A DNA stretch of 64,000 bases. It comes from Deltaproteobacteria bacterium. GTDB taxonomy: Bacteria > Myxococcota_A > Polyangia > Polyangiales > Ga0077539. Location of the stretch: contig JAUXYJ010000103.1 of the NCBI GenBank assembly GCA_030694465.1, forward strand, positions 91,057 to 155,056, written 5' to 3'. Both the position numbers and the translations under genes were made by a program. A model generated the notes under the pieces. That model was not told where the DNA came from. It was given only the letters and a program-made list of their open reading frames with translations, and did not search any database. The first letter of the stretch is position 1, and every line of letters starts with the position of its first letter. Positions 3,894 to 37,452 of this stretch are shown piece after piece.

Positions 3894-3908
3894 ATCCCTG
3901 CACATCGC

Positions 3909-5036
3909 GTGTACTCTCGCGCGATGACAACCGTGCACACCGTGGGCTCTCTCTCGCGCGCCATGGAGGCGATCGCGCCCACGCGCTTCGCCGCCTCGTG
4001 GGACAACGTGGGGCTCTTGGCCGGAGACCCTACGAGCACGATCACCTCGGTTTTGCTCTGCATTGACCTCACCCGCGAGGTCTTTGACGAGGCCTGCTCG
4101 CTCGGTGTGCAAGCGATCATTGCGTATCACCCGCCGCTGTTTAAGCCCCTCGCGCGGGTCACGCAGGGCTCGCTCATTTACGAGGCCATTCGGCACGACA
4201 TCGCGATCTATTCGCCGCACACGGCGCTCGACGCGGCCGACGGAGGGACCAACGATGTGCTCGCGGATTGCGTGGGAATCTCCAGGCACAATCGCACTTC
4301 TCTCGCCCCGCCTCCGAGCCGCGAGACCCACTGCAAGCTCGTCACGTTTGTCCCGCGCGACGCGCAAGACCGCGTGTGCGATGCGCTCTTTGCAGCGGGC
4401 GCCGGGGTGATCGGGCACTACACGCAGTGCTCGTTTCGCGTGGACGGACACGGGACTTTCTTGGGTGACCCTGCGCACACGAGCCCCGCCGTGGGCCAAG
4501 CCGGGCAGCGCGAGCGCGCCGAAGAGACCCGCGTCGAGGTGCTGGTCCCGCTGGCTCTTCGAGAGGCCATAGTGCAAGCGCTCTACGCAGCACACCCGTA
4601 CGAAACCCCTGCGTTTGACCTAGTAAAATTGCTCGACGAGCCCGAGCACAAGGGCTATGGCCGCGTGGGCTCGCTCACTGCGCCGACGCACTTTCGCGAA
4701 GTGCTGAGTGGGCTCAAGCAGGCGCTCGGCGTGAGCCATGTGTTGGTCGCCGGCCCCACCGATCGGGTGATCACGCGTGCCGCAGTGGGCGCGGGTTCGA
4801 CCGGCGAATACCTGGGCGCAGCCCTCGCGCAACGTGTGGATCTCTTTGTCTTGGGCGAGCTCAGACACCACGACGCCCTCCGCGCGGCGAGCGCTGGGCT
4901 GACCGTCGTGATGACCCTGCACTCGGTCTCAGAGCGCGCCACATTGCGCCATGTGCAATCGCGATTGCGCGCGGCCCTGCCTGAGCTGTCTCTGCACCTG
5001 AGCCAGCGCGATCACGATCCCCTGGTGATTTGCTAA
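3909..5036 (+). CDS. Nif3-family dinuclear metal-centre protein (YqfO/GTP cyclohydrolase 1 type 2 homologue)
   Basis: AASWDNVGLL and IIAYHPPLF motifs; length with central insert is typical of bacterial Nif3. Confidence 0.75.
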   Translation: MYSRAMTTVHTVGSLSRAMEAIAPTRFAASWDNVGLLAGDPTSTITSVLLCIDLTREVFDEACSLGVQAIIAYHPPLFKPLARVTQGSLIYEAIRHDIAIYSPHTALDAADGGTNDVLADCVGISRHNRTSLAPPPSRETHCKLVTFVPRDAQDRVCDALFAAGAGVIGHYTQCSFRVDGHGTFLGDPAHTSPAVGQAGQRERAEETRVEVLVPLALREAIVQALYAAHPYETPAFDLVKLLDEPEHKGYGRVGSLTAPTHFREVLSGLKQALGVSHVLVAGPTDRVITRAAVGAGSTGEYLGAALAQRVDLFVLGELRHHDALRAASAGLTVVMTLHSVSERATLRHVQSRLRAALPELSLHLSQRDHDPLVIC

Positions 5037-5078
5037 CGGTTCGCTCTTTGCACACCGCGCTCTCTTAGGACCCACCCC

Positions 5079-5879
5079 ATGAAATCCATTGCTCCTCGCC
5101 TCGCCCTCGCCGTGGTGCTTTTGCACGCTTCGCCGAGCCTCGCCCTGCGCATCGCGCCACCGCAGCCCATGCCCGTCCCAGTCACGCCGATGCCCTCGCC
5201 CAACCCGGTGCCCGTCGAGGTGATCGTCGTGCCGCCCGGCGGCGACCAGGGCCCCATGCCCTCACCCCAACCGCAGCCCGTGATGATCGAGCCCATCGTG
5301 GTGCAGCCCGCGATCACGCAGGCCCCCGTACGCCAGCCCCCGATCGCGCGCCCGATGGAGCCACCGCCCTGCCCCAGCGTGGGAGAAGAGTACATCCCGA
5401 GAGAGAGCGCCGAGCGATATCGCGAGCGATCCAACACGCTCTTTCTCGTTGGGAGCATTGGCTACGGCAGCGTCTCGGGCACCCTCCCGGTGGTGATCCC
5501 TGGAGTCACGCTGGGCGCATCGCTGCGCATTGTGCGCAGCGGTTGGCTCGTCGAGCCGAGCTTCGATGTGGTCTTCGATGGCCAGCGTCTGGGCAGCTCT
5601 GCGCCCTATCTCGAGATCAGACCGGCAGTGCGCGGAGGCTACACGGGCGCGATCACTCAGCACATCGCCCTGGGAATTCGCTTGGGATATGCGATGGACC
5701 TCGCCATCTCACGCTTTAACCCGCCGGGGCTTATTCACCAAGTCGAGCTCTCGCCGCACCTCACGATTGTCACCGACCGCGGCGTGATCCTCGAGCCCTT
5801 CTTGGCCGCCGGCGTGCAGATCGCCAACCCGATCACACCCATCGCAGTGCTCGGCCTCCGTGTGGGCACGATGCTGTAA
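5079..5879 (+). CDS. Secreted Pro-rich protein with beta-rich C-terminal half
   Basis: Signal peptide MKSIAPRLALAVVLLHASPSLA; PxP repeats; alternating hydrophobic C-terminus. Confidence 0.45.
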   Translation: MKSIAPRLALAVVLLHASPSLALRIAPPQPMPVPVTPMPSPNPVPVEVIVVPPGGDQGPMPSPQPQPVMIEPIVVQPAITQAPVRQPPIARPMEPPPCPSVGEEYIPRESAERYRERSNTLFLVGSIGYGSVSGTLPVVIPGVTLGASLRIVRSGWLVEPSFDVVFDGQRLGSSAPYLEIRPAVRGGYTGAITQHIALGIRLGYAMDLAISRFNPPGLIHQVELSPHLTIVTDRGVILEPFLAAGVQIANPITPIAVLGLRVGTML

Positions 5880-6049
5880 CAGCCTGTGAATTTGCAGGCG
5901 CATCGAGAGGCGCGAGAATCCGAAGTCGCAATCTTCGTGCGGGTGACTCGTGGCCAAGCTAGCGTGGCTGTGCGTCGGGGGATCGAGACCTCTTCGCAGC
6001 AGCGGGGCGCGAGGTGACCAGAGCCCCCCTGACATTGGGCGAGGTCACC

Positions 6050-6274
6050 ATGGATGATTGGATAGCGAAAATGCAGACGAAAGTGAAGTTGCGAGCCAAT
6101 CCTTCCTTCGACATCCGCAAACGCATCCAGCTCTCTGAGGCCGACATCTGCCCGCAGGGACGGCCCACCTGCCGATGTCTTGAGATGCGCGCGCAGATCT
6201 GGACTGCGCCTCCGAGCGGCTCGTACCTCTTCAGCGCGGCCTACTCCCATGGCGGCGACGTGAGGTTTCACTGA
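6050..6274 (+). CDS. Small hypothetical protein, stop overlaps start of downstream Cys-rich lipopeptide (TGATG)
   Basis: ORF MDDWIAKMQTKVK...; 1-nt overlap with next ORF; lower local GC; no homology recognised. Confidence 0.3.
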   Translation: MDDWIAKMQTKVKLRANPSFDIRKRIQLSEADICPQGRPTCRCLEMRAQIWTAPPSGSYLFSAAYSHGGDVRFH

Positions 6275-6561
6275 TGCTTCGCCCAGTGATTTCGCTGCTC
6301 GTTCTCGCGTGGGCCTTCGTCGGCTGCGGCGAGTCCGTGGCACCGCAGGTGTGCGATGGGCCCTGTGTCACCGACGCGGCGACGCAGCCCGATGTGGCGC
6401 CATCCCCAGCAACATGCCCCGCAGAGCGGCCTGTGGTCGGAAGCATGTGCAGCCCTTCATTGGGCGGCGAGGTCTGTTTCTACGGTCGTGAGATTACTTA
6501 CACTTGCATTTGCCGCTGCTTCGACGCTGGCTGCTTCTGGATCACCTGCGACAGCGCTTAA
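6274..6561 (+). CDS. Small secreted Cys-rich lipopeptide (95 aa, 9 Cys), copy 1
   Basis: Signal/lipobox LLVLAWAFVGC; ends CRCFDAGCFWITCDSA. Confidence 0.55.
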   Translation: MLRPVISLLVLAWAFVGCGESVAPQVCDGPCVTDAATQPDVAPSPATCPAERPVVGSMCSPSLGGEVCFYGREITYTCICRCFDAGCFWITCDSA

Positions 6562-6585
6562 CTCACCTCAGCCCATGAGCCCATC

Positions 6586-6879
6586 GTGACATTTCGCCCA
6601 GTGATTTCGCTGCTCGTTCTCGCGTGGGCGTTTGTCGGTTGCGGCGAGTCCGTGGCACCGCAGGTGTGCGATGGGCCCTGTGTCACCGACGCGGCGACGC
6701 AGCCCGATGTGGCGCCATCCCCAGCAACATGCCCCGCAGTGCGGCCTGTAGTCGGAAGCATGTGCAGCGCTTCACTAAACGGCGAGTACTGTCAATACGG
6801 TCGTCGTCCAATTATTATTAGTTGCCGTTGCCGCTGCTTCGACGCTGGCTGCTTCTGGATCAGCTGCGACAACGATTAA
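6586..6879 (+). CDS. Small secreted Cys-rich lipopeptide (97 aa), copy 2, paralogue of 6274..6561
   Basis: Residues 3-55 identical to copy 1 except one substitution (AERP vs AVRP); C-terminal 16 aa nearly identical; central 20 aa diverged. Confidence 0.55.
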   Translation: MTFRPVISLLVLAWAFVGCGESVAPQVCDGPCVTDAATQPDVAPSPATCPAVRPVVGSMCSASLNGEYCQYGRRPIIISCRCRCFDAGCFWISCDND

Positions 6880-6888
6880 CTCACCTCA

Positions 6889-6906
6889 CCCGGCGACGTC
6901 GCCGGG
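6889..6906. repeat. Perfect 18-nt palindrome CCCGGCGACGTCGCCGGG between convergent genes (hairpin; terminator-like)
   Basis: Self-complementary sequence 10 nt after the TAA of 6586..6879 and 11 nt before the stop of 6917..7225(-). The same 16-mer core recurs at 16789, 17637, 44213 and 55922. Confidence 0.45.
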
Positions 6907-6916
6907 TCGCGCGCGC

Positions 6917-7225
6917 TCAGTCCAATCGGCAGCCCTCGCGCTGTGAGATCCAGCGGGCGCGGGCTCCCCACGAGAGCACCGCTTGCGTCTCGACTTCGCG
7001 CCGCGCGTGGTCCACGCGCACCGTGCGCAGGTTGGGGTTGGCCCGGGTCCAGCGCAGGCAAAACGCCTCGTCTTTGTGCATCACAAAGACACACGAGCAC
7101 ATCTCTTTGGCCGCGTACGACGTGAGCAGCGCGAGGTCGTGGTTGTTGTACGGGCGCGGGTCGCCGGGGCAGCCCGCGAGCACGAGCGCCACCGAGGCCA
7201 GCGCTGCACGCAACAGAGTCTTCAT
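6917..7225 (-). CDS. Small lipoprotein (102 aa)
   Basis: Lipobox VLAGC; start overlaps stop of the upstream serine hydrolase gene by 4 nt (ATGA). Confidence 0.5.
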   Translation of the reverse strand: MKTLLRAALASVALVLAGCPGDPRPYNNHDLALLTSYAAKEMCSCVFVMHKDEAFCLRWTRANPNLRTVRVDHARREVETQAVLSWGARARWISQREGCRLD

Positions 7226-8376
7226 GGTGCCACCGCCATCGCCGCTGCAATAAACCCAGCAAAGTCAAAGCCCCGAACGCGATCGTCCGCGGTGCGCACG
7301 ATGACCAATTCGCGCGAGGGGATCACCGTGATCGACTGACCCCAGTGCCCGCGCGCTGCGTAGGTGTCCTCGGGGACTCCGGGCCACGGCGTCGTGACGC
7401 CCTGCTCGGGCACTGGTCGGTTGAGCCAAAACTGCCGGCCCTGCACGTCGTCGGCGTCTGCATCGAGCCTGCGAATTCGCTGCGGAGCGCTCACCTCGGT
7501 CGACGTGCGCACCCACCCCTCGGGCAGGATGCGTTGATCTCGCCAGCAGCCATCGCGCAGCAAGAAGTAGCCAAAGCGCGCGAGGTCTCGCGGCGTGGCG
7601 TACCAGTACGAAGAGCCGATGGGCGTGCCGCTCGCGTCGCGCTCGAGCGTGGCCGAGGTGATCCCGAGCGGATCAAACACATATCGCCATGGATATTCGC
7701 TGTCTTCGCCCGCTGCGCTGTACGCGCGATCGACCGCGCGCGAGAGCAAGTTTGTGTCGCCCGACGAGTACATGTACGTCGTCCCTGGGCGGTCACGAAA
7801 AGGGTGCGAGCCCACAAAGCCCGCGGCGTCGTGGTGGCCCACGCCGTAGAGCATCGCGAGGACCGAGCTCTCTTGGTTGGACGCGTTCTCGTAGGTCTCG
7901 CGCCAATCAAGACCGGTCGCGAACTCCATCGGGTGCTGCACCGTGAGCGCGCACATGTCCATGCGCAGATAGGGCATCCAGCGGCAGAGCGAATCGCTGA
8001 GATTGAGGTAGCCGCGACCGACCGCGATGCCTGTTAAAACATTGGTCAAGCTCTTGGTCATCGACCAGGTGTAGTGCGGCTGCTCGGCGGTCCATGTGCG
8101 CCCATAGCGCTCGTACACAAGCACGCCGCGATGGAGAATAAGCACCGAGTCCGTGCGCACGCCCAAGCGCTGGTCGTCTTCGCCCGTGAGCGTAAACACA
8201 CGCTGCTCGAGCGCTGCGATTTCGGTCGCCCGCGCGGCGCGGGTGGTCTCAATCGCGGACTCCCACTGCGCGTCGGGATAGCGCACGCCCGCAGGGCACG
8301 ACGACTGCGCGAGGGCGCTCGTGGGAGAGAGCGCGAGGGTCGCAATTGCTAGGTAAATTCCAGCTAAAATTCTCAT
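7222..8376 (-). CDS. Beta-lactamase/penicillin-binding-fold serine hydrolase, secreted
   Basis: Signal peptide; SxxK motif SMTKS; YSSG-like motif; class C/esterase-like length. Confidence 0.7.
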   Translation of the reverse strand: MRILAGIYLAIATLALSPTSALAQSSCPAGVRYPDAQWESAIETTRAARATEIAALEQRVFTLTGEDDQRLGVRTDSVLILHRGVLVYERYGRTWTAEQPHYTWSMTKSLTNVLTGIAVGRGYLNLSDSLCRWMPYLRMDMCALTVQHPMEFATGLDWRETYENASNQESSVLAMLYGVGHHDAAGFVGSHPFRDRPGTTYMYSSGDTNLLSRAVDRAYSAAGEDSEYPWRYVFDPLGITSATLERDASGTPIGSSYWYATPRDLARFGYFLLRDGCWRDQRILPEGWVRTSTEVSAPQRIRRLDADADDVQGRQFWLNRPVPEQGVTTPWPGVPEDTYAARGHWGQSITVIPSRELVIVRTADDRVRGFDFAGFIAAAMAVAP

Positions 8377-13661: not shown

Positions 13662-14309
13662 CTAGAGATCGTCCGAGCCGCGGGATGCGCTCGCTGGGGG
13701 TCGAATCCCCACCTCGAGCGAGCTCCACTCGGTGACCTTCCACAGGCCCTTGTCGTTGCGTTTGAGAGAGAGCGGTCTGGGCGAGTCGCTCCCCGTGGAG
13801 TGAACAAACACCTTGGCGCGGTCGCCTTGGATGGCATCTTTGGCCACGCGCACGGCCACGAGGTACGGCGCCTCGGGCAGCGCGTACGAGCTCAATGGGC
13901 TGGTATTTTGCAGGTAAGACGCCGCGATGTAGGGCTTGGCTGCTAGGCGCTCTCGGAGGGTCTGGATGATCGCCATGCGTGGACGGCGGCCCTTGTACGC
14001 GGCGGGGTCGTCATCGAGCAGCGAGGCATCCAGCGACACCGTGATCAACGGCAGCGTGTTGCGTGGGTCGCGCACATACGCGTTGAGCGCTGCCACAAAC
14101 GAAGCAGCGGCGCCCTGAGGAGAGACCGAGAGAGCGTCACGTTGCGTAAGAAATGGCTCGATGTTCGACGGGATGTGCGAGAGCACGACGGCGTGCTCGT
14201 GGGGATCGGTCTGGCTCATGGTTGCGAGGTCCTCTGGTGAGAGAGTGTACGCAAAGAGGAGACTCGTTTGGGGCCCAGCGCGCAACACATGGGCTTGCGC
14301 GCACATCAC
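13662..14309 (-). CDS. Hypothetical protein
   Basis: ORF only; likely real start at internal Met (about 14218), since the 5' end otherwise overlaps the PYP gene. Confidence 0.3.
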   Translation of the reverse strand: MMCAQAHVLRAGPQTSLLFAYTLSPEDLATMSQTDPHEHAVVLSHIPSNIEPFLTQRDALSVSPQGAAASFVAALNAYVRDPRNTLPLITVSLDASLLDDDPAAYKGRRPRMAIIQTLRERLAAKPYIAASYLQNTSPLSSYALPEAPYLVAVRVAKDAIQGDRAKVFVHSTGSDSPRPLSLKRNDKGLWKVTEWSSLEVGIRPPASASRGSDDL

Positions 14310-15110
14310 AGAGGGCGTGCGACAGAAGCTGCTCAGCGACAGCGTCTGTATGCCAGTCGGACTCTACGACTTACGCCCCCCGCGCTGCCACCCATTGTCG
14401 TGACCCAAGCACCCTCCATCGACTTACTTCAGCGACTCGGCGAGCTTGTCGCACAGCGTGATTCGCTTGAGCGCGAGATCGAAAAAATCCGCCGCGCGAT
14501 TGCGCTCGGGCCCACGTCAAACGACCGCTGGAGCGAGTCTCCGCCCGTCGCGACGGCGCGGATCCAGGGCGACAGCAGCAGCACGACCTCTCCCTATCAG
14601 CAAGCGCTGCGTCAAGCCGAAAACTTGCTACGTGTGGGCAATCCAGCGGTGTTTTTGCAGCAGGTTCAACCCGAACCCGCGCGAGTCGAGTCTCGTGTTG
14701 CGCCCCTCGCGGTCGAGGACCGCGCGTCGTTTGATCTAGGTCGAGTGAGGCAGCTGCGGACCGAAGAGCTCGACTCGCTCCCCTATGGGCTCATCGTGCT
14801 GGACAGCGAAGGCAGGGTGCTCTCTTACAACGACGCCGAGAGCCGAATGGCCAAGCTGCGACGCGAACAAGTGATCGGAAAAAACTTCTTCTCCGACGTC
14901 GCGCCGTGCACCCGGGTTCGCGAGTTCGAAGGGCGATTTAGGGCCTTTGTTCGAAGCGGCGGCGCGCGAATGCTCGAGACCTTTGACTTCGTGTTTCGCT
15001 TCGCACACGGCACGCAGCACGTGACCATTTTCATTGTCCCCGGCCGCGTGCGAGGGACCTTCAACGTCGCGATGACACGCCGTGCGATCGAGCCAAACGC
15101 CGTACCGTAG
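14268..15110 (+). CDS. pyp: Photoactive yellow protein (PYP)-domain protein with about 150-aa N-terminal coiled-coil extension
   Basis: C-terminal 125 aa align to Halorhodospira PYP. The chromophore-site block VIGKNFFSDVAPCT matches PYP VIGKNFFKDVAPCT, including the Cys that carries p-coumarate. Tyr42 and Glu46 equivalents are present in LSYNDAES. An alternative GTG start at 14400 avoids overlap with the upstream gene. Confidence 0.75.
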   Translation: MGPSAQHMGLRAHHRGRATEAAQRQRLYASRTLRLTPPALPPIVVTQAPSIDLLQRLGELVAQRDSLEREIEKIRRAIALGPTSNDRWSESPPVATARIQGDSSSTTSPYQQALRQAENLLRVGNPAVFLQQVQPEPARVESRVAPLAVEDRASFDLGRVRQLRTEELDSLPYGLIVLDSEGRVLSYNDAESRMAKLRREQVIGKNFFSDVAPCTRVREFEGRFRAFVRSGGARMLETFDFVFRFAHGTQHVTIFIVPGRVRGTFNVAMTRRAIEPNAVP

Positions 15111-15128
15111 TCCATTCGACCTGACAAA

Positions 15129-15527
15129 TTGCAGACAATTTCTATCTACCCTGAGGACCTTCTCTTGAGTGACACCGAGCTTGCACGTTTTGCAGCCGCG
15201 CACCCCTCTGTTCGCGCGGCGGCTATTCTCACTTCTGACGGCACACTGCGCGAGGCCATCTCTGAGCAAGACGAGACGCGCGATGCGCTCGCAGCGTTTG
15301 TCGTCGCGCTCGAGGCCCTCGCGGATCGCTCCATGTCCGAGCTCGGCGCTGGACGACTTCGGACCATGCTCTTTGACGCCGAAGGAGGCGCCTTGCTGGT
15401 CGTCCCCGCAGGCGATGATCACTTCGTCGCGGTGCTCATGAGCGACCCATACGCCCTCGGCGCCCTGTGGTCCGATGCTCGCGCGCTGGGTCTACGGCTG
15501 GCCCCTGTTCTCGGAGTCGCCGCGTGA
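15129..15527 (+). CDS. Roadblock/LC7 (MglB-like) domain protein
   Basis: Pattern V.AAAIL..DG.L...SELG.G.L..ML.DAEGGALLVVPAGDDHFVAVL is typical of Roadblock/LC7; 132 aa. Confidence 0.7.
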   Translation: MQTISIYPEDLLLSDTELARFAAAHPSVRAAAILTSDGTLREAISEQDETRDALAAFVVALEALADRSMSELGAGRLRTMLFDAEGGALLVVPAGDDHFVAVLMSDPYALGALWSDARALGLRLAPVLGVAA

Positions 15528-16108
15528 GCGCCCTCCGCCTCGGCCTCGCGGTGGTCTTGAGTGCCTCTGGCTGGGGCCTCGCGACCCAGCGCGCCATGCA
15601 CGCTCACCCCGCACACTCGCCTGCAATCATCCCCGCGAATTCACACTCGGAGCGCTCACAGCCTGCGCCGGATCTCTCTACCCTCACCCCACCAACGACA
15701 CCGGCGATTGTGCGCGAGGAGCCCACGCCTCAGCAGCTTCCCGTCGCGCCAGCACCCGTCGAAGCAGCACCCGTCGCGCTAGCACCCGCCCTGCGCGATG
15801 ACCCTGCAGGGATCGAGCTTCCGATCACACCCGAGGGGCAGATCGAAGCGAGCGCACTTCAGCGCGCGCGTTGGGTCGCCGAGCTCATCGCGCGTCCCCA
15901 CAGTGTGCACCGTCGACGCGTGCGCATCGAGGTCATCGCCGGAAGCGACAGCAGCGTTTCTGCCCAGCAAATCAGCCAAAACGTCTCGCAGCTCCTCCGC
16001 TCACACGGCGTGTGGAACGCTCAACTCGTCCACAGCGCGACCACTCTCGCGCCCGCGCAGACCTCGCGCGTAGTGCTCACTCCCCTCGCCCCTGGAGTCT
16101 CTCGATGA
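15524..16108 (+). CDS. Secreted Pro-rich protein of unknown function
   Basis: GTG start overlapping the Roadblock stop (GTGA); signal peptide VSALRLGLAVVLSASGWGLA; PxxP-rich N-terminal half. Confidence 0.45.
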   Translation: MSALRLGLAVVLSASGWGLATQRAMHAHPAHSPAIIPANSHSERSQPAPDLSTLTPPTTPAIVREEPTPQQLPVAPAPVEAAPVALAPALRDDPAGIELPITPEGQIEASALQRARWVAELIARPHSVHRRRVRIEVIAGSDSSVSAQQISQNVSQLLRSHGVWNAQLVHSATTLAPAQTSRVVLTPLAPGVSR

Positions 16109-17055
16109 GCCTCATGGATCTCTTCGCCATCGCCACAGGCGCCCTCGGCACGACCGCGGTGGGCTACCTCGTCGCAGCACGACAATCACAACGCGCGCTG
16201 GACCGAGAACAGATTCTGCAAGCCAATTTGCAGATCCAATTGCGATCATTGCAGACAGATCTGATGCACGCCGAGCGGCAACACAGCGTGCTCTCGATGC
16301 GAATGGGGCTGTCTGGCACGAGCCCGGTGAGCGCCGACGCGATCTTGAGCGAGCTGGCCTCGGGGCAGCAGCTCGACGCCGTGTGTTTGGCCGATGCCGA
16401 GGGGCTGCCGTGGGGGTGCGCGGGCGACCGAGAGCTCGCGCTTGAGCTCGCAGCGCTCGCTCCGTGGATGCTCGCGCCGGGTGCGTTGGAGGCGTCATCG
16501 CGGCTGCGGGTGCTCGGCGCTTCGGGAGCGACACTGTTTGCGCTGCGCTGTGTTTATCAAGGCCGCGTGATGATTTTGGCTGGGGTTCATGCCGTGCGAA
16601 CGATCGACTCGTTTGCTTTTGAGCGTGCAGCGCTCTTGCTTGAGCGAGGTCAGCGCGCGAGCGTTGAGCCCGCGCCTGTGTTGCCTCAAAGCGTCACGCT
16701 CTCGCTCTCGCAAGACCCAGCACTCGACGCCCGAATGCGTACGGTGGCTGCACGCGCCCTCTGGGTCGGAACACGAGCCTGCGGAGACCCCGGCGACGTC
16801 GCCGGAATGCAAACGCGTTGCGGCTGGCTCGCAGAAATCTTGGAGAGGGCCGCTCGCACAGGCCTCAGCAGCCCCGTGGCCATCGTCCTGCAGCGCGAAC
16901 ATGACACGCTCGTTCAGTTTGGTGAAGGCGCAGGATTTCAGGGCGGAGCGCTGTTGCCGCAGCGACAGATTTCGCGCGCAGAGTTGCATCGCATCGAAGC
17001 TGTGTTGCGCAGGCTGCACCACGAGACGCGCAGCGGCGAGCGCGCGGCGGCCTAG
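16105..17055 (+). CDS. Membrane-anchored coiled-coil protein with a second Roadblock/LC7-like domain
   Basis: ATG overlaps the upstream stop (ATGA); N-terminal TM helix LFAIATGALGTTAVGYLV; coiled-coil; segment AVCLADAEGLPWGCAG...LFALRCVYQGRVMILAGV is Roadblock-like. Confidence 0.5.
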   Translation: MSLMDLFAIATGALGTTAVGYLVAARQSQRALDREQILQANLQIQLRSLQTDLMHAERQHSVLSMRMGLSGTSPVSADAILSELASGQQLDAVCLADAEGLPWGCAGDRELALELAALAPWMLAPGALEASSRLRVLGASGATLFALRCVYQGRVMILAGVHAVRTIDSFAFERAALLLERGQRASVEPAPVLPQSVTLSLSQDPALDARMRTVAARALWVGTRACGDPGDVAGMQTRCGWLAEILERAARTGLSSPVAIVLQREHDTLVQFGEGAGFQGGALLPQRQISRAELHRIEAVLRRLHHETRSGERAAA

Positions 17056-17665: not shown

Positions 17666-19609
17666 CTAAGCGGGGCTCGCCACCGGTGGCATCAAGCGTC
17701 GCGATGCCTCGGCGAACGAGAGAGAGGCCTCTTCGCGACCGAGCGCACGATAAAACGTGGACAACAGCGAGAGCGCGGCCACTTCACCCGCTCCTTCGCG
17801 GCGAGAACGCGCGGTCGCGAGCGCCGCGAGCGTAGAGCGCACTGCGCGTCCCATATCACCCGTCGAGGCCTGCGCGAGAGCAGCCGTGAGCAAGGTCTTC
17901 GCGTCTTGGTGATCCTCTGGCCCACGCGCGTCCGCGAGCTGAAGCGCTCTTTGGACATTGCCCCGGACGAGGGCCGCCAACGTGCGCAGTCGCTGCGCGC
18001 CCTCGGGGTCGTCCTGTGCGTCGAGCTGGCCCGCGGCGCTCTCAAGGCTCACCGCGTCAAGCGGCTTAGAGCGTGACGGCCGCGAGAGTCCACCCGTGAC
18101 GGTGACCGAGACCACTGGCCCCATGTCATCCAGGATCGCCCGCGCGATCGTCGCGACCTCAAGCGAGTTAAACTCTCGGCGCGCCAACACGAGGTATCTG
18201 AGCGCGGTGGTCTTGAGCCCCGCCTTGTCGGCCGTGGCAGCAGCCTGCGCAAACGTGCGGGCGGCCTCGGTCGCTTGCTGTGCACCCAGCAGCCGCTCAC
18301 CCTGCGCAGCGAGCGCAACGGCTCCCGAATGCAGCACCTCGACGGCGCGGATCGAGGGGGCTCCTGCAGCGATGCGCACAGACTCATCGATCCGGACGCG
18401 CTCGTTGCTGTCATGCACAAGAGCCTGCGAAATAAGGGTCGAGAGCAAGCTCTGTGGGTCTTGCCCAAACAGCCCGCGCAACAGCGCCGCGGCGGTCGCG
18501 AGGCTGCGCCCGTCACCGAGCGCGGTGAGCGTCGCCAAGGCCGCGCGAAGCGGCATGTCCATGTCCTCGATTCGCGCGTTGATGGCCACACGCGGAGAGT
18601 CTTTGCGCCGCAGAACGGGCCGCTCTCGCTTGCGCCATTGCCCTTCTTTGAGCACCAGGGACCCGAGCTGAATGGCCGCGCGGACCGCGTGCGCGATGCG
18701 CCCAGGCAGCATTTCACCTTTGCGCGCGAGTCGTCGCTCAATGCGAGGGTCCGTGGGCTCACCAAGGATCTGCCTCACCAGCGCGCGGGCGTCATAGTCG
18801 CGGAGGGCGCCCAGGGTGATCCCCTCAGGCGGTACCCGGAAGGTCATCTCCATGGGGCGGCTCACGCGCACGATCACGGTGCGCCGTCGGCCCAGCTCTT
18901 CGGCGATCGGAACAAACGTGCGGGCACTCTCGGGCAACGGATCCGCGATCACCCACGCGTCCGCCGGTGCTCCCTGAAGCGCGCGCTCTACGCTGGCGAG
19001 TGAGCCATGAAGAATATCGCTCGGCAGGTACACCGCGGCACGCCCGACGCGCCGAGCGGCTTCTTCAATCACCCGCGACGCGCCCGCACCGGGCTCTGCA
19101 TGAACAATCACTGGGCAGCTCCGCTCGATGCACGCGAGGAGCGCGCTCACTTCGCGGTTGCGTGCGACCAGAGCGGGGCGCAACGGGAGGGTCCTGACAC
19201 GCTCACGTGCTTCGGCACGGCTTGCAAACTCCGGGGCCATCGCGACCGCGTAGCAAGGCAATTTCCAAGTCGGACGCGATTTAGGTTTAACCACAAAGAG
19301 TTCGCGTTCGAGTCTCCTGTGTGCGCCGGCTTCGAGCAAGAGTTCGCCCTCTTCGGCCGCACACGCGAGGGCGACGGCGCGCTCACGGGCCCGCTGCGTA
19401 AACTCAGACTCTAGCGCCACAGCGCCAGCGATCCCCTGCTGAAGCAAGGGTGTGAGCTTGCAGAGCTGTGCAGCAGCGTCACTGGGATTGAGGGTCTCGA
19501 AGAAGTACGACTCGAGACAATCCGCCCAGCTTGCGGGGGCACCTAGCACTGCACGGGCTTCAACGAGAACGTCGTCTTGGCCGCGGAGAACAACGATCCA
19601 CGAGTCCAT
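17666..19609 (-). CDS. Large hypothetical protein with degenerate P-loop-like segment and TPR-like C-terminus
   Basis: 647 aa; segment IVHAEPGAGASRVIEEAARRVG resembles a Walker-A region lacking the Lys; Ala/Leu-rich helical repeats at the C-terminus; downstream of pspA on the same strand. Confidence 0.4.
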   Translation of the reverse strand: MDSWIVVLRGQDDVLVEARAVLGAPASWADCLESYFFETLNPSDAAAQLCKLTPLLQQGIAGAVALESEFTQRARERAVALACAAEEGELLLEAGAHRRLERELFVVKPKSRPTWKLPCYAVAMAPEFASRAEARERVRTLPLRPALVARNREVSALLACIERSCPVIVHAEPGAGASRVIEEAARRVGRAAVYLPSDILHGSLASVERALQGAPADAWVIADPLPESARTFVPIAEELGRRRTVIVRVSRPMEMTFRVPPEGITLGALRDYDARALVRQILGEPTDPRIERRLARKGEMLPGRIAHAVRAAIQLGSLVLKEGQWRKRERPVLRRKDSPRVAINARIEDMDMPLRAALATLTALGDGRSLATAAALLRGLFGQDPQSLLSTLISQALVHDSNERVRIDESVRIAAGAPSIRAVEVLHSGAVALAAQGERLLGAQQATEAARTFAQAAATADKAGLKTTALRYLVLARREFNSLEVATIARAILDDMGPVVSVTVTGGLSRPSRSKPLDAVSLESAAGQLDAQDDPEGAQRLRTLAALVRGNVQRALQLADARGPEDHQDAKTLLTAALAQASTGDMGRAVRSTLAALATARSRREGAGEVAALSLLSTFYRALGREEASLSFAEASRRLMPPVASPA

Positions 19610-19650: not shown

Positions 19651-20331
19651 CTACTTCTTCAACCGCGCTTTGAGCGCCGCGATGTCATCGTCGAGCTGGT
19701 CTTTGCTCTCGCCTTTTTCAAGACGCCGAAACCTCTCTTCGAGGTCTGCTTTCTTGGGATCGTCCAAGATCGTGTGCGCCTCGGCCTCGGCTTCGAGCCC
19801 CTCGACGCGCTCCTGCAGCTCTTTAAAGCGTGCGAGCGCGGGCGTCGGGGCGCCTGCGTCGTCGCCAACGCCGTCGCCCGTTGTGCTGCGCGCTTTGACG
19901 ACCGCGGCAGCGAGTGACGCGCGGCGGGCTTTGAGCTCTTCGACCTTTTTCTCGAGCAAATCGATGGAGCTCTTGATGTCGTCTGACATCGCCGCTTGTT
20001 GGCTCCGCAGACGATCGGCGTCGACCGCGTCAGTCTCGGACTTCTTCTTGCGGCGCAGGGCCTCGCGGGCGAGCTCTTCGTCGCCGTGCTCGAGCGCCAG
20101 CATCGCCTTGTTCTCCCAAGACTCAGACTCTTTGACGTGTTCGGCGACTTTGCGCTCAAGCTGCTTGACCGAAGCCAAGGCTTGCACATGCTCTTGTCGG
20201 GCATTTTTCAGCTCGCTCAGCATGTCTTCGATGGTCTGCGCGATGATCTTCGCGGGGTCCTCGGCCTTGTCAATAAAGCTATTGATGTTGGCCTTGAGTG
20301 AGCGTCCGAAGCGATCGAGAATTCCCATGAC
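19651..20331 (-). CDS. pspA: PspA/IM30 family phage-shock protein A
   Basis: MGILDRFGRSLKANINSFIDKAEDPAKII... is the conserved PspA N-terminus; coiled-coil throughout. The annotated ORF starts upstream at 20412 but Met at 20331 matches the family N-terminus. Confidence 0.8.
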   Translation of the reverse strand, partial: VMGILDRFGRSLKANINSFIDKAEDPAKIIAQTIEDMLSELKNARQEHVQALASVKQLERKVAEHVKESESWENKAMLALEHGDEELAREALRRKKKSETDAVDADRLRSQQAAMSDDIKSSIDLLEKKVEELKARRASLAAAVVKARSTTGDGVGDDAGAPTPALARFKELQERVEGLEAEAEAHTILDDPKKADLEERFRRLEKGESKDQLDDDIAALKARLKK

Positions 20332-20557
20332 TCTGAATGCCTCCTGAGGGAGCAAAAAAACAATGAAGGTGGTGGTGAACCGCGGACCTGTAGAACCACC
20401 CAGACAGCACAACCGGTGTTGTTCTACGTGAGTTTGAGCCGGTCACACACCGTGAACCACGCAGCCTACAAGCGTGAGCGGTTGTAGCACAGACACTTCA
20501 TGCACGTTGTGGTGGTAGCAAACGAGCGAGCCGTGCAATCATCCGGCGAATTCTACG

Positions 20558-21592: not shown

Positions 21593-22765
21593 ATGAGCCT
21601 CGACGAGCAAACCATCGACCTGTCGCAGATCGCAGCCGATGGCTGGTACGACCAGCTCGTAGACTCGTCTCCTGCGCTGGCGCGCCTCGCGACCGCGCTC
21701 GGCGATGGCCTGCTCGCGCTCTCGCTCGTCGCTGGATTTCGCATCGAATCTGCGGTGACAGAGCGCACGACCGAGGCCCTCCAAGAGCTCCGTTGGCACA
21801 AGAGCCAAGAGCTCTCACCGACGCTCGCCTCGCTCACCGAAGAGCTCCGCGTGAGCCGTGACCAAGACCCTGCGACGACACCCGCTCAGGTCAACTTTCG
21901 TGGCCCTATCGCGACACTCCGCACAGAGGTCCTTGCCTCGCTCGTCGGCGAGGCCGAGAGCGCCGTGTCCGCCGAGGACGTCTCGCGCTCGCCCGAGACC
22001 CTGCGCGCGTTCATCGGTGCGCGGTCGGCGCTGCTCGCGCCCTTGTTTGGCCTGGGTCTGCGGACGCTACGGCTTTCAGCCGAGGGCGACGCGCGTGTCG
22101 TTGTGGCCCATGACAACATCGAAGAGGTCGTCCCGCTCAAGCAGCTCCGGCGCTTTTTGCGGCAGCGCGTCGTCGAGGTGCTTCAACAGAGCGCGGGTCG
22201 TTCGCAGGTCGCGATTGAGCTCGCTCAGGCAGATTTGGCCCAAATCGCGCTCGACGAAGGTCGACCCCAAGAGGTCGTCGCGAGGCTTATCAGCTGGATC
22301 GCGCCCTTGTCGGTCTACCATCGCAGCCCTGAAGGCCAGGCGCTCGACCCCAGCGTCCGCGCACGGCTTGCCCGTGCGTTGGGAGCGCTCGCGCAAGCCT
22401 ATGGCCAGCTCGGTCGCCTCGATGAACAGCACGAGACCCTGCGTTTGTCCCTGCAATATGCGCTCGATGGCGAAGCTGCCGGGCCGCTGTTTTTAGCGCT
22501 CGGACACACGTTTTTGTCCCAGGCGCGTTTTGGCGAGGCCATCGGTCCGTTTCGTCGCGCCCGCACGTTGAAAGTAGACGAGGCTCTGGTGCTTCCGCCT
22601 CTCGCGCGGGCTCTTCATGGCGCAGGCCGCTCGGTCGCCGCCCTCGCGTGCGTCCGATCGCTCAGCACACGCACTGCCGAAGACGACGCGCTCTTGCAGA
22701 CCCTCCATGACGCGCTTGGCGAGCCAGCGAGCGCGCTCGATGCGCACATGGCGCGCCAGCACTGA
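21593..22765 (+). CDS. Hypothetical protein, helical/TPR-like C-terminus
   Basis: ORF with Ala/Leu-rich helical repeats; no catalytic motifs. Confidence 0.35.
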   Translation: MSLDEQTIDLSQIAADGWYDQLVDSSPALARLATALGDGLLALSLVAGFRIESAVTERTTEALQELRWHKSQELSPTLASLTEELRVSRDQDPATTPAQVNFRGPIATLRTEVLASLVGEAESAVSAEDVSRSPETLRAFIGARSALLAPLFGLGLRTLRLSAEGDARVVVAHDNIEEVVPLKQLRRFLRQRVVEVLQQSAGRSQVAIELAQADLAQIALDEGRPQEVVARLISWIAPLSVYHRSPEGQALDPSVRARLARALGALAQAYGQLGRLDEQHETLRLSLQYALDGEAAGPLFLALGHTFLSQARFGEAIGPFRRARTLKVDEALVLPPLARALHGAGRSVAALACVRSLSTRTAEDDALLQTLHDALGEPASALDAHMARQH

Positions 22766-22772
22766 GACTCTG

Positions 22773-24353
22773 TTAGCTCTGCAAATACGCAAGCGGATCG
22801 ATCTTCATCCGTGCACAGAGCTTGCGCGCTCGGTCCGAGTGGTTGGTCTTGGCTCCCTGCGCGCTGTCACCGTCGAAGAGCCAACGGCCTGCCTCGGCCA
22901 ACGAGCGCGAGCGCCTGAGCGCTTCAAGCACCAGCGCATGCTGCACGCGCTCGACGCGATGCAACGAAGCGGGGGCGTTCTCAGCGCCTTGCTGCGCAGC
23001 GTATGAGGGCGCGAGCCCGCCACCGGTGGCTGGCGCCCACAGCTCTGAGAGTCGTGTGATTTCGCTGGCGACATCGTCGGTATCAATCAGCCCTTCGCTC
23101 GCGCTCGCGCACATCCGCAGCACCGATTGGGACAGGTCGCGAAAGTTGTGTGGCCAGCGCGCTTGCTCGCTCCGCGCGAACGCCAAATAGGTCTTGAGCC
23201 CTGCGCGAGAGAACCGCACTTGGCGCTTGTACGTGTCGGCGAAGCGCTCAAGCTCAAAGCGCAGGTTCTCTTCGATGTCTTCGCGTCGCTCGCGCAAGGG
23301 CGGAAGACAAAAAGACCACGTCGAGATCCGCGCCAAGAGGTCATCGCGAAAGCGTCCCGCCTGCACTTCGACACGCAGATCACGGTTGGTCCCGCACACC
23401 AGCGCAAACCGCGAGTGCACGGGCGTGTCTGCACCCACCGGAAAAAACCGCCCCTCTTCGATCGCGGTCAACAGCACGGCCTGCTCTTCGAGCCCAAGCT
23501 CGCCGACCTCGTCGAGAAACAGCATGCCCTCGTCCGCGGCCAGCAAATAGCCTTTGCGATCGCGCTCTGCGCCCGTGAACGCCCCGCGCTTGTGGCCAAA
23601 GAGAGCGCTCTCTCGGAGCGCCCCACGCAGCGTCGCGCAGTTGACCTCGACAAGCGGACCATCGAGCGCGCCACGTGCCTTTCTAAGCGCGTAGATCCTG
23701 CGCGCCAGTGCGCTCTTGCCCACGCCCGTCTCGCCCCACAGGAGCAGCGGGACGGGCGGCCCCAGCGCCGCGCGCTCAAGCGACGCGATGAGCCCCGCGA
23801 AGACCTCGGAGCGCGTCTCGATGCCCATCTTGAGCAGCGACTGCCCTTCGAGCTGCTGGGTGTGTCTTCGCCGCGCGATGGCCGGATAGCGCGAGAGATC
23901 GAGGTCCACGATGTCGAGGGGGCCCGGGGGACCGTCGCGTTTTCCGGGGCGGGTCTGCACCAAGCGCGCGGGAGCAAAACGCTCGCTGACGAGCAGGTAC
24001 CAGACGATCTGCATCACGTGTGTCCCAGTCGTGAGGTGCACGTAGTACTCGCAGCGGTCGTCCCAGGTCTGCGCACGACAGAACTCGTAGAAGCGCTCAT
24101 AGACTTCTTCGAAATCCCAGGGATTTTCTAGGGGAATGGGCACCCTCTCGACCTGCACCGACGGCGCGAGCTTCTTGAGATCTCGCACGAGCGCCACCGC
24201 ATACTCAGAGGTCTTGTCTTGCTCGAGCACGATCAGCCGGTCGACCGCGAGGAGGTCTGGCCGTCGCACACACTGCAGCGTCGGTCGCCACTGGCCCGGG
24301 GCGTCGAGCTTGGCCCCCAGCACCGAGATCATCACGCGCTCACGTGTCTTCAT
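22773..24353 (-). CDS. rtcR: Sigma-54-dependent transcriptional regulator RtcR (CARF-type N-terminal sensor domain + AAA+ sigma54-interaction domain + HTH)
   Basis: N-terminus matches E. coli RtcR: NPWDFEEVY, TTGTHVMQIVWYLL...PARLVQ, DLDLSRYPAIA. Sigma-54 domain: GETGVGKS, ESALFGHKRGAFTGA. Divergent from rtcB. Confidence 0.85.
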   Translation of the reverse strand: MKTRERVMISVLGAKLDAPGQWRPTLQCVRRPDLLAVDRLIVLEQDKTSEYAVALVRDLKKLAPSVQVERVPIPLENPWDFEEVYERFYEFCRAQTWDDRCEYYVHLTTGTHVMQIVWYLLVSERFAPARLVQTRPGKRDGPPGPLDIVDLDLSRYPAIARRRHTQQLEGQSLLKMGIETRSEVFAGLIASLERAALGPPVPLLLWGETGVGKSALARRIYALRKARGALDGPLVEVNCATLRGALRESALFGHKRGAFTGAERDRKGYLLAADEGMLFLDEVGELGLEEQAVLLTAIEEGRFFPVGADTPVHSRFALVCGTNRDLRVEVQAGRFRDDLLARISTWSFCLPPLRERREDIEENLRFELERFADTYKRQVRFSRAGLKTYLAFARSEQARWPHNFRDLSQSVLRMCASASEGLIDTDDVASEITRLSELWAPATGGGLAPSYAAQQGAENAPASLHRVERVQHALVLEALRRSRSLAEAGRWLFDGDSAQGAKTNHSDRARKLCARMKIDPLAYLQS

Positions 24354-24502
24354 TAAGATAGAAAGATATATCGATACAGATATACTAAGTGATTTTTCTC
24401 TGCATTTTTATGCTGATGAGGCTCTGGCATGGTCCGTGAAGTGAACTCTGGCATCAACGCGGCTCGAAGGGAGCACGCGGTGACACGAAAGGCAGAGCGA
24501 CC
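24354..24502. promoter_or_regulatory. rtcR-rtcB divergent intergenic region; AT-rich block (about 40% GC over 70 bp) with duplicated CTCTGGCAT motifs; expected site of RtcR UAS and sigma-54 promoter
   Basis: ttaagatagaaagatatatcgatacagatatactaagtgatttttctctgcattttta is atypically AT-rich for this genome. Two TGGCAT elements fall at 24424 and 24450, but no clean TGGCAC-N5-TTGC was found. Confidence 0.35.
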
Positions 24503-25765
24503 ATGAAGATCCACACGACCCCCAACCAGAAGAATGTGCGCATTTTTGCAGAGAATCTCGAGGCCAGCGCGCTCGCGCAGATCGAGAACATCGCGATGCT
24601 TCCCTCGATCGTGGGCGACCTCGCGTTGATGGCCGACGCGCACACGGGCAAGGGTGTGCCCATCGGGACGGTGTTTGCGACCGAGGATCTCGTGGTGCCC
24701 GATGTGATCTCAGGAGACATCGGGTGCGGGATGGTGCTGATGAAGACCACGCGCCGCGCCGAGGAGCTCAACGCGCGTTCGGTGCGCCATTTGCTTCAGA
24801 AAGTGAACAACCGGGTCTGCAAAAACATCCACCATCACGGGTCGAGCGAGCTCACCGCGATGCTGCCCAGCGTTGTCGACCGCGCAGAGCCCGTGGTGGC
24901 CAAGAGCGCTGAGCGTGCCGCGCGACAGCTCGGGACGCTCGGTGGCGGAAACCACTTTATCGAGCTTCAGCGCGACGAAGAGGGCATGTTGTGGGTGATG
25001 GTTCACTCGGGATCGCGTGGTCTTGGCCAGGCGGTCAACGGGTACTATCACGACGCTGCGTTGGCGCTCTGCGAGCGATTGGGCGCGAGTTATCCTCAGG
25101 GATTTCCCTATCTATTGGTAGACACCGACGAGGGCCGAGGGTACTTGGCCGAGCAGGCTTATTGCTTGCGTTATGCCGAGGCGAACCGTGAGCTCTTGCG
25201 GCGCGCGTGTGAAGAGAGCCTGCGCGAAGAGATCGGTGATTTTGAGGTCTCGCTTGTGGTCCAAACGCATCACAACTTTCTCTCGAAAGAGCGCTGGGAC
25301 GATCGTGATGTGTTTGTCCACCGCAAGGGTGCCGTCGCGGCCCCCGCGGGCGCCTTCGTGACCATCCCTGGCTCGATGGAAACATCCAGCTTTTTGTGCC
25401 GCGGAACAGGCTCTGCGCTCTCGCTCGGTTCGGTCTCTCACGGGGCTGGGCGCGCCAAGAGCCGCGGACAGATGACCCCCAAGGTCTATCTCAAGGACGA
25501 CAACGGTGAGGTGTTTCGAGACAAGGGCGGCTACGCGCGTGTCGATCGCCCCGCGACGGACGAGGCGCGCCGCGTCGCTGCAAAAGAGATGATCCTCGAG
25601 ATGGAAGCCAAGGGGATCACATTGGTCACGCACGACACCACCGGCGTGATCGATGAGCGCGCGCATGGCTACAAAGACGTCACACACGTGATCAACGCGC
25701 AGCGAGAGCTGCTCGAAGTGGTCACCGAGCTGTGGCCCCTGGGTGTCGTAAAGGCGCCCAACTAA
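24503..25765 (+). CDS. rtcB: RNA-splicing ligase RtcB (3'-phosphate/5'-OH RNA ligase)
   Basis: DAHTGKG, DIGCGM, GNHFIE, SHGAGR motifs; 420 aa. Confidence 0.9.
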   Translation: MKIHTTPNQKNVRIFAENLEASALAQIENIAMLPSIVGDLALMADAHTGKGVPIGTVFATEDLVVPDVISGDIGCGMVLMKTTRRAEELNARSVRHLLQKVNNRVCKNIHHHGSSELTAMLPSVVDRAEPVVAKSAERAARQLGTLGGGNHFIELQRDEEGMLWVMVHSGSRGLGQAVNGYYHDAALALCERLGASYPQGFPYLLVDTDEGRGYLAEQAYCLRYAEANRELLRRACEESLREEIGDFEVSLVVQTHHNFLSKERWDDRDVFVHRKGAVAAPAGAFVTIPGSMETSSFLCRGTGSALSLGSVSHGAGRAKSRGQMTPKVYLKDDNGEVFRDKGGYARVDRPATDEARRVAAKEMILEMEAKGITLVTHDTTGVIDERAHGYKDVTHVINAQRELLEVVTELWPLGVVKAPN

Positions 25766-25873
25766 ACGAGCGAATCACGGGAGAAATTCGGTGCTTCGCC
25801 GTCTTATATTTTCATAAGCTACTTTCGCGAGAGCAGATCAGGACACACCCTCGCGCGCACTGGTTTTTAACGA

Positions 25874-36912: not shown

Positions 36913-37452
36913 TCATGGTTTGCTCAGCGAGTCGATGCGTTTGGCCAGCTCATCAAAGCGGGGCGAGTTGCCTTTGGAGCGCGCGAGCATCAGATGCATG
37001 CGGGCCGCTTTAAAATCATTGCGGTCGAGCGATTCGACGGCTTTGTCAAAGAAGGCGCGGGCAGCTGGAGGGATCGCGGCGTCGACGATTGTGGCGTCCC
37101 CTTCGGCGAACATTTCGTCAGGGCTTAGCCTGAGCGCGCCGCGGCGACGTGCGGCGTCAAAGCGCGCGCGGAGGGTAGCGTGCATCAACACACGGTAGGC
37201 CTCGCTTCCGCGCTTAAAGATCTGCAGGGCGTAGGACTTTTGCTCGGGTTCGTCCTGAAAGCGGTCTGGATGATAGTGCAGCGCGAACAGATGAAACGCA
37301 TCGCGAATTTGCTCAGAGTCTGCGTTGTCAGCCACGGACAAGAGCGCGTAATAGTCCAGCGTCTCGAGCTGACCGAGCGTATCGCGCACCGTAGAGTCGT
37401 CTGCGTCGGTCATGGTGTGAGTGTCCTGCTGCCCTGAGAGCGCAGCGCTCAA
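36913..37452 (-). CDS. J-domain (DnaJ-like) co-chaperone, J-domain only
   Basis: DYYALLSV...YHPDR (HPD motif) J-domain; start overlaps the Hsp70 stop (ATGA). Confidence 0.75.
   Translation of the reverse strand: MSAALSGQQDTHTMTDADDSTVRDTLGQLETLDYYALLSVADNADSEQIRDAFHLFALHYHPDRFQDEPEQKSYALQIFKRGSEAYRVLMHATLRARFDAARRRGALRLSPDEMFAEGDATIVDAAIPPAARAFFDKAVESLDRNDFKAARMHLMLARSKGNSPRFDELAKRIDSLSKP

Follow-up and report, generated by a model that had tools for sequence, protein, structure and literature searches.

A photoactive yellow protein homologue encoded with Roadblock/LC7 proteins in a conserved gene cassette of Myxococcota and Blastocatellia, a probable membrane-associated light-signalling system

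For over 30 years photoactive yellow protein (PYP) has served as a textbook photoreceptor, and the recipients of its signal are still sought. A 2025 survey of 984 PYPs describes the missing signalling partners as 'an important gap'. The question of what a PYP might signal to is raised by a stretch of 64,000 nucleotides from a Deltaproteobacteria bacterium of the Polyangiales (contig JAUXYJ010000103.1), here called the window, in which a gene for a PYP homologue is followed by genes for a Roadblock/LC7 protein, a Pro-rich accessory protein and a coiled-coil protein with a predicted membrane anchor. A first, sequence-only reading of this DNA had seen in it a blue-light sensor wired to a GTPase switch of the MglA/MglB type. 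Our computational analysis of the four genes and their relatives leads us to conclude that they probably form a membrane-associated light-signalling cassette, its output being left aside.

The four genes are head-to-tail open reading frames (ORFs) on the + strand, spanning positions 14268-17055 of the window. The first, g1 (14400..15110; 236 aa), encodes the PYP homologue with an N-terminal extension; its ORF opens with a TTG at 14268, and the GTG at 14400 is taken as the start, backed by the alignment of homologues and by an identical NCBI protein (P0001). After 18 nt, and without overlap, follows the Roadblock/LC7 gene g2 (15129..15527), which encodes 132 aa if read from TTG 15129 and has an in-frame TTG at 15165 as an alternative start. 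The accessory gene g3 (15524..16108; 194 aa) overlaps g2 by the letters GTGA (15524-15527), of which the GTG is its start codon, and g4 (16105..17055; 316 aa), whose product we also call X, overlaps g3 by ATGA (16105-16108) and begins with that ATG. The operon-like arrangement noted earlier is borne out by this tight packing; the overlaps of the GTGA/ATGA kind noted with it are present at the g2/g3 and g3/g4 junctions, g1 and g2 being spaced. GC content at third codon positions (GC3) is 0.68-0.72 across the four genes as against 0.75-0.83 in the flanking ones, the value for g3 (0.72) being like that of the genes next to it. Around the operon, nothing exceeded background in scans for promoters and terminators, in Rfam or in a search for repeats.

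Does g1 have what is needed to bind the PYP chromophore? The protein matches the Pfam PAS family (E 2e-9) and the NCBIfam model TIGR02373 photo_yellow (E 5.6e-25, 87.8 bits), and a phmmer search of the PDB recovered more than 30 PYP sequences with E-values down to 2e-17, as well as the PYP domain of R. centenum Ppr; its identity to H. halophila PYP is 33-40%. The PYP domain, delimited by alignments with H. halophila PYP (aa 111-232; 14730..15095), was modelled by AlphaFold2 (AF2) from an alignment of 84 homologues with a predicted local distance difference test score (pLDDT) of ~90, and the top 40 Foldseek matches of this model in the PDB are all PYP or PYP-derived chains (TM 0.71-0.86, ~0.8; identity 32-40%). 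The VIGKNFFSDVAPCT block is found in g1, and mapping onto H. halophila PYP, in agreement with the PDB alignments, equates Tyr143 (TAC 14826-14828) with Tyr42, Glu147 (GAG 14838-14840) with Glu46 and Cys170 (TGC 14907-14909) with Cys69. Identical between the two proteins are Ile31, Tyr42, Asn43, Glu46, Phe62, Phe63, Val66, Ala67, Pro68, Cys69 and Phe96, which include all six residues of a published pocket list (Ile31, Phe62, Val66, Ala67, Pro68 and Phe96; PMC12826048). At positions 47, 50 and 52 g1 has Ser, Ala and Leu, unlike the atypical residues of H. halophila and matching the consensus of 984 PYPs (Ser47, Ala50, Leu52; Dohmen et al. 2025, PMC12826048); Tyr94 and Tyr98 of H. halophila are replaced by Phe. 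In the alignment of 84 diverged homologues, whose mean column identity is 33% over its full length, the equivalents of Tyr42, Glu46 and Cys69 are invariant and those of Asn43, Ala67, Pro68, Phe62 and Phe63 invariant or nearly so. Judged by sequence, g1 belongs to the PYP family, has its p-coumaric-acid pocket complete and is predicted to bind the chromophore; the intact chromophore site claimed in the sequence-only reading is upheld by the three aligned residues together with the TIGR02373 and PDB matches.

The N-terminal extension of g1 had been described as about 150 aa of coiled coil. That length is reached solely with the unsupported TTG start at 14268; the extension has ~105-110 aa and consists of one 30-aa helix (aa 6-35; 14415..14504; AF2 pLDDT ~96 over aa 11-30) and, after it, a Pro-rich, disordered linker (aa 36-110; 14505-14729; pLDDT <50 for most of aa 41-110). 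The helix, of the type L..ERD.LR.E, is the conserved part and is retained across the 84 homologues. Many extended PYPs start with R-R-T-L-P-A-P-S-E-P right before it, the corresponding stretch of the window (14400-14425) encoding M-T-Q-A-P-S-I-D, and this short motif might serve in docking or phosphorylation.

The assignment of g2 to the Roadblock family stands, since the protein passes the Pfam PF03259 Robl_LC7 model with 34.3 bits against a gathering cut-off of 23 and covers profile positions 7-90 of 91. As a single sequence it matches the Roadblock protein 7f8m in the PDB (E 1.3e-5), and a profile made of g2 and five orthologues matches Asgard Roadblocks with E-values of 1e-13 to 1e-14, Rv3364c with 2e-7, CvnB5 (3leq) with 3e-7 and M. 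xanthus MglB with 4e-4. Because the first three are far stronger than the last, g2 is, at the level of sequence profiles, a generic Roadblock protein and not a close orthologue of MglB, and its earlier description as MglB-like gives way to a closer relationship with Asgard and CvnB-type Roadblocks. Matches of the Roadblock profile to WD40 proteins in the PDB combined very low whole-sequence E-values with no accepted aligned stretch, and were rejected as an artefact of repeat summing.

Neither Pfam nor NCBIfam has a family that matches the product of g4. A word-indexed search returned g4 only, an exhaustive phmmer search of 1.84 billion representative proteins found one distant relative, and a profile of seven positional orthologues retrieved just the query and four Blastocatellia-type members; X evolves too fast for sequence searches, and its members were therefore gathered by gene position. 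Its first ~25 residues are hydrophobic and are followed by Arg/Lys, as in almost all positional orthologues, a pattern suggestive of a membrane anchor of N-out, C-in orientation, the remainder of the protein lying in the cytoplasm. This anchor and the long helix predicted by AF2 (aa 3-66) agree with the transmembrane and coiled-coil character first assigned to g4. Beyond the helix, aa 77-181 (16333..16647) are modelled with the topology a-b-b-a-b-b-b-a at block-mean pLDDT values of ~55-83, and the best Foldseek match of this domain is M. xanthus MglB (6hjm; E 2e-5, TMt 0.63), followed by 3kye, other Roadblock proteins, Ragulator/LAMTOR and the Rag C-terminal domain. A whole-length hhalign comparison of a 7-sequence X alignment with the Roadblock family was non-significant; the informative comparison used 52 positional orthologues split into two domains, and aligned both aa 72-190 (E 4.4e-5, P 69%) and aa 195-316 (E 3.2e-5, P 73%) over their full length with the Roadblock family of the cassette, and the two domains with each other over 115 columns (E 2.2e-7, P 94%). 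The second domain (aa ~195-316; 16687..17052) is assigned from these profiles. The earlier reading was right to see a Roadblock-like fold in g4, as Foldseek and hhalign both indicate, and it counted one such domain where hhalign finds two. From model and profiles taken together, g4 is predicted to be composed of an anchor, a coiled coil and two tandem Roadblock-like domains.

Is this association peculiar to the window? In the first five homologue neighbourhoods inspected, a Roadblock gene and an unannotated gene of 291-425 aa adjoin the extended PYP in 5/5 cases, the orders being Robl-X-PYP, Robl-(196 aa)-X-PYP and PYP-Robl-X. When the PYP family alignment was run against GTDB, one genome for each species, it returned 80 loci, and a hidden Markov model built from six Roadblock partners detected a Roadblock orthologue on the same strand (E 1e-14 to 1e-46) in 57 non-redundant loci, usually 0.6-2 kb upstream of PYP. 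The start of X typically lies 4 bp ahead of the Roadblock stop, 4-bp Robl/X overlaps being common. Four gene orders occur, Robl-X-PYP, PYP-Robl-X, Robl-g3-X-PYP and PYP-Robl-g3-X, the last solely in the window. A quick neighbour-joining tree built from PYP domains groups the Roadblock-linked PYPs in a single clade with 61 leaves, of which 55 have the Roadblock gene, 4 lack upstream DNA on their contig and 2 are real exceptions; hence 55/57 informative clade members are Roadblock-linked as against 0/20 PYPs outside the clade, which comprise PYP-V4R fusions from Acidobacteriota and the short PYPs found in Corallococcus and elsewhere. When the flanks were compared all against all, PYP, Robl and X proved to be the sole families that recur throughout the loci; the genes bordering the cassette in the window, a divergent DUF6935 gene upstream and a NUDIX gene 62 nt downstream, do not recur in related loci. 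The carriers, at least 55 species-level genomes, are mostly Polyangia-type Myxococcota, with the addition of Blastocatellia, and include the cultured Sorangium sp. So ce1099 (L037 in our numbering of loci) and Persicimonas caeni. Complete genomes with the cassette are NZ_CP150359.1, OZ245328.1 and that of P. caeni. Conservation of the downstream ORFs in relatives, put forward at the outset as a check, came out strongly positive in these 57 loci: the overlaps and gene orders show a trio that is, to judge by sequence, translationally coupled and that stays together despite shuffled gene order. Ser/Thr kinases, hybrid histidine kinases and SDR genes were considered as further conserved partners and ruled out, their position and orientation being inconsistent.

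Certain loci carry an additional sensor. In L048 (1017-3092) the Robl-X-PYP cassette is directly adjoined by a further PYP, one with a long C-terminal extension, and in L002 (6938-8008, - strand) and L005 (11188-12243) by a PAS_4-V4R protein, a Pkinase-TPR gene being nearby in these two. Two sensors of the PYP or PAS-V4R type may cooperate in some genomes.

The main text of the two surveys of PYPs (789 and 984 homologues; 2022 and 2025) contains neither 'roadblock' nor 'LC7', and their supplementary tables hold a single Roadblock neighbour, that of Persicimonas caeni (Robl 127 aa - hypothetical 349 aa - PYP 263 aa). Full-text literature searches combining PYP and roadblock returned nothing relevant. 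The arrangement had been thought undescribed, and apart from this one tabulated neighbour, listed without discussion, it is: the photoreceptor-Roadblock module is real, conserved and built from known parts, and essentially undescribed.

A PYP needs a supply of p-coumarate, and the genes usually considered for this are those of tyrosine ammonia-lyase (TAL) and 4-coumarate-CoA ligase (pCL). As first noted, the window has neither: a motif scan and Pfam searches on ~45 ORFs found no aromatic ammonia-lyase or AMP-dependent ligase in its 64 kb. This absence is normal, because published surveys find TAL in 5% and pCL in 32% of pyp operons. A locus from the metagenome-assembled genome of an uncultured Myxococcales (L060) bears on the question more directly. 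There a 521-aa lyase of the HAL/PAL family and a 501-aa acyl-CoA ligase (2444-5487, - strand) lie 33 bp from the Roadblock start on the opposite strand, next to Robl (5520-6056), X (6026-7141) and PYP (~7138-7926). The lyase has the MIO motif ASG and the His-Leu selectivity motif YHLATGVG, which we take to be diagnostic of tyrosine specificity by the precedent of His89 of Rhodobacter TAL, and hence presumably is of the TAL type. No other of the 84 non-redundant loci has a lyase beside PYP. Though a single locus, it has the enzymes that a photoreceptor using p-coumarate would require, and the sequences of this lyase and ligase support a p-coumarate chromophore.

The remaining gene of the cassette, g3, is variable in occurrence. 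It was described at first as coding for a secreted Pro-rich protein, which fits its signal-peptide-like N-terminus and Pro-rich segment as predicted from sequence; these are followed by ~90 C-terminal residues with sub-threshold Pfam resemblance to CpaD (E 0.006) and OmpA_C. It has no significant family match, and its pairwise similarity to the counterpart in L001 is marginal. Elsewhere, counterparts between Robl and X occur only in L001/L067, L011 and L074, and those in L001 (4536-5126), L011 (2611-3186) and L074 (8278-8907) have in common a signal peptide, a Pro/Ala-rich linker and a degenerate OmpA_C-like C-terminus. A degenerate OmpA_C/CpaD-like domain in g3 is a possible lead. With such a signal the g3-like protein would be periplasmic and the rest of the cassette cytoplasmic.

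How might these components work together? We propose that the three Roadblock domains, that of g2 and the two of g4, would assemble by pairing into a platform at the cytoplasmic side of the membrane, in the manner of MglB/MglC and Ragulator, and that PYP would attach to this platform through its N-terminal helix, which plausibly pairs with the X coiled coil. Blue light would isomerise the thioester-bound p-coumarate in g1, and proton transfer from the Glu46 equivalent together with unfolding of the N-terminal cap would shift the seating of PYP on the platform. This proton transfer and the light-driven unfolding of the cap are established for H. halophila PYP. The altered seating would in turn change how the platform binds or regulates a partner encoded outside the cassette, by family precedent most likely a small Ras-like GTPase encoded elsewhere, and g3 would act as a lineage-specific periplasmic accessory protein. 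A more far-reaching form of this proposal, which we regard as rather unlikely, is that Robl-X-PYP represents a native and perhaps ancestral PYP output in the phylum where PYP may have originated, a light-gated, membrane-tethered Roadblock platform that resembles Ragulator but has a photoreceptor subunit, switches a Ras-like GTPase encoded elsewhere and so places polarity, motility or development under blue-light control.

Several observations weigh against the reading of the four genes as a light-signalling cassette. No output component was identified in the window or in the neighbourhoods of the cassettes. The physical interaction of PYP, Robl and X is a prediction from gene linkage only. The AF2 model of g4, made from a shallow alignment, has a mean pLDDT of 51, with values <50 in the region of domain 2, and it is the profile comparison by itself that makes domain 2 appear Roadblock-like. 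Two clade members, L017 and L033, have no Roadblock gene within 10 kb; the N-terminal extensions of their PYPs are shorter, and these genomes may have lost or relocated the cassette. On the side of the photoreceptor, the 87.8 bits of g1 lie under the TIGR02373 equivalog cut-off of 143.05 bits, in a model that describes short, canonical PYPs; the Persicimonas member of the clade is likewise marked '< cutoff' in PMC9664959. To date 12 PYPs have been characterised, none of them from the lineages of the g1 clade, and a lyase stands beside the cassette in 1/57 loci, a ligase within 10 kb in few, and neither in the window.

These last points, namely the score short of the cut-off, the lineages of the characterised PYPs and the absence of TAL and pCL from the window and from beside 56/57 cassettes, also count in favour of an alternative in which the PYP-like domain senses redox or a small ligand, or is a structural adaptor, and the cassette is unrelated to light. 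To them may be added the Phe residues at positions 94 and 98 and the neofunctionalised PYPs proposed in other lineages (PMC9664959). The pocket residues, however, are (near-)invariant over 84 diverged members, which is hard to explain without a chromophore; a TAL-type lyase and a CoA ligase are encoded directly beside the cassette of L060; and the survey frequencies given above make the absence of these genes elsewhere normal. We consider such a light-independent role improbable.

If the four genes do form a light-signalling cassette, what does the signal reach? Photo-input to a polarity or motility switch, with the Roadblock proteins acting as MglB-like GTPase-activating proteins or regulators of an MglA-type Ras-like GTPase, is suggested by the fact that the characterised prokaryotic relatives of g2 (MglB, CvnB of the conservons and the Asgard Roadblocks) all partner small GTPases, by the M. 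xanthus MglB chains that are the best structural matches of g4 domain 1, and by the GTPase-controlled gliding known in Myxococcota from the literature. Against it stands the gene context. A motif scan and Pfam searches on ~45 ORFs found no small GTPase in the 64-kb window; no MglA-like ORF (E<=1) was found in 90 loci with flanks up to +/-10 kb, a result to be taken as approximate; and no GTPase family is among the recurrent neighbours of the 57 cassettes (flanks +/-10 kb). The genes mglB and mglA are co-operonic, as are cvnB and cvnD, unlike the situation in the cassette; the profile match of g2 to MglB is weak beside that to the Asgard proteins (E 4e-4 vs 1e-13 to 1e-14); and the membrane tether and tandem domains of X have no counterpart in MglB. 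The wiring to an MglA/MglB-type switch that the sequence-only reading had envisaged therefore finds no small GTPase in the window or near the 57 cassettes to connect to, and we regard it as doubtful, albeit with a real chance of being correct. A GTPase target encoded elsewhere in the genome is possible by analogy with the family, and the gene context lends it no support.

Another conceivable route would lead through a eukaryotic-type Ser/Thr kinase or another adjoining signalling enzyme, with the T-L-P-A-P-S stretch of the extended PYPs as a possible phosphosite. A Pkinase gene lies <=60 bp from the cassette in L005, L007 and L037 and <=1.3 kb from it in L002, and Ser/Thr kinases occur in 14/57 loci. 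Their position, orientation and architecture vary, however, most being 2-6 kb away and adjacent in ~4 loci, and in the window the nearest Pkinase gene (28809-29813) is ~11.7 kb from the cassette. Myxococcota genomes encode hundreds of Ser/Thr kinases, so that the observed frequency is near background. This makes a kinase output highly improbable.

Comparison with known systems places the cassette, in the light-signalling reading, among familiar designs of which it is a new combination of parts. With H. halophila PYP g1 shares the PAS fold, Tyr42, Glu46 and Cys69 and the p-coumarate pocket (identity 33-40%, TM ~0.8), whereas the ~105-aa N-terminal extension has no equivalent there and g1 misses the TIGR02373 cut-off. 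The pyp-pcl-tal operon finds a parallel in L060, with its TAL-type and ligase genes beside the cassette; the partners of PYP in that operon are pCL and TAL as opposed to the Roadblock proteins of the cassette, and the window has no chromophore genes. MglA/MglB/MglC of M. xanthus, of the same phylum, likewise include small, mutually pairing proteins of the Roadblock/LC7 fold, with g4 domain 1 superposing best on MglB; that system includes the GTPase gene and its MglB is only weakly similar to g2 in sequence, whereas the cassette adds a photoreceptor and a membrane-anchored tandem Roadblock partner. The actinobacterial conservons, or AGPS (CvnA-D), also encode a sensor and a Roadblock protein together, a conservon being a syntenic set of the histidine kinase-like CvnA, the Roadblock CvnB, the DUF742 protein CvnC and the GTPase CvnD (PMC13343842). 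The recently described CvnF, a single-GAF accessory sensor (PMC13343842), resembles PYP in being a small single-domain sensor, and the g2 profile matches CvnB5 (3leq) and Rv3364c; in contrast to the conservons, the cassette has the Roadblock component only, without CvnA, CvnC and CvnD, its sensor is a PYP and it occurs in other phyla. Ragulator (LAMTOR1-5) similarly presents several membrane-tethered Roadblock domains as a docking platform, and the Foldseek matches of g4 include LAMTOR and Rag C-terminal domains; it is eukaryotic, is held by a lipid anchor instead of a transmembrane helix and has no PAS-type sensor, and the analogy is structural only. Finally, CetB/CetA and the Leptospira PYP next to sensor-less chemoreceptors (PMC9664959) combine, like the cassette, a soluble PAS or PYP protein with a sensor-less membrane coiled-coil protein, but X, the membrane partner here, has Roadblock domains and not the signalling domain of methyl-accepting chemotaxis proteins.

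A PYP clade with two constant, dedicated partners offers specific candidates for the missing PYP signalling partners, and its carriers are mostly Myxococcota, the proposed cradle of PYP. If the light-signalling reading is true, this would be the first case of a Roadblock module that receives a defined physical input, namely light, and the membrane-anchored tandem-Roadblock architecture would be new to the field of Roadblock proteins and small GTPases. A compact, light-dependent PYP-Roadblock interaction could also serve optogenetics.

Other genes of the window include two large ORFs without a Pfam family beside the cassette, of 647 aa (17666-19609, - strand) and 390 aa (21593-22765, + strand), between which lies a PspA/IM30 gene (19651-20412, - strand). 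The region 22773-27775, in which the gene for the sigma-54 activator RtcR is divergent from that for the RNA ligase RtcB, with a gene for an RNB protein of the RNase II/R type following, is an RNA-repair locus unrelated to the cassette. A 1175-aa protein (37449-40976, - strand) carries an Hsp70 ATPase domain at its N-terminus (E 4e-149), its ~600 further residues having no Pfam match, and two large repeat proteins are encoded towards the ends of the window, one with DUF4215 repeats and PA14 (2175-3893) and the other, of 1020 aa, with five STIG1-like repeats (59186-62248, - strand).

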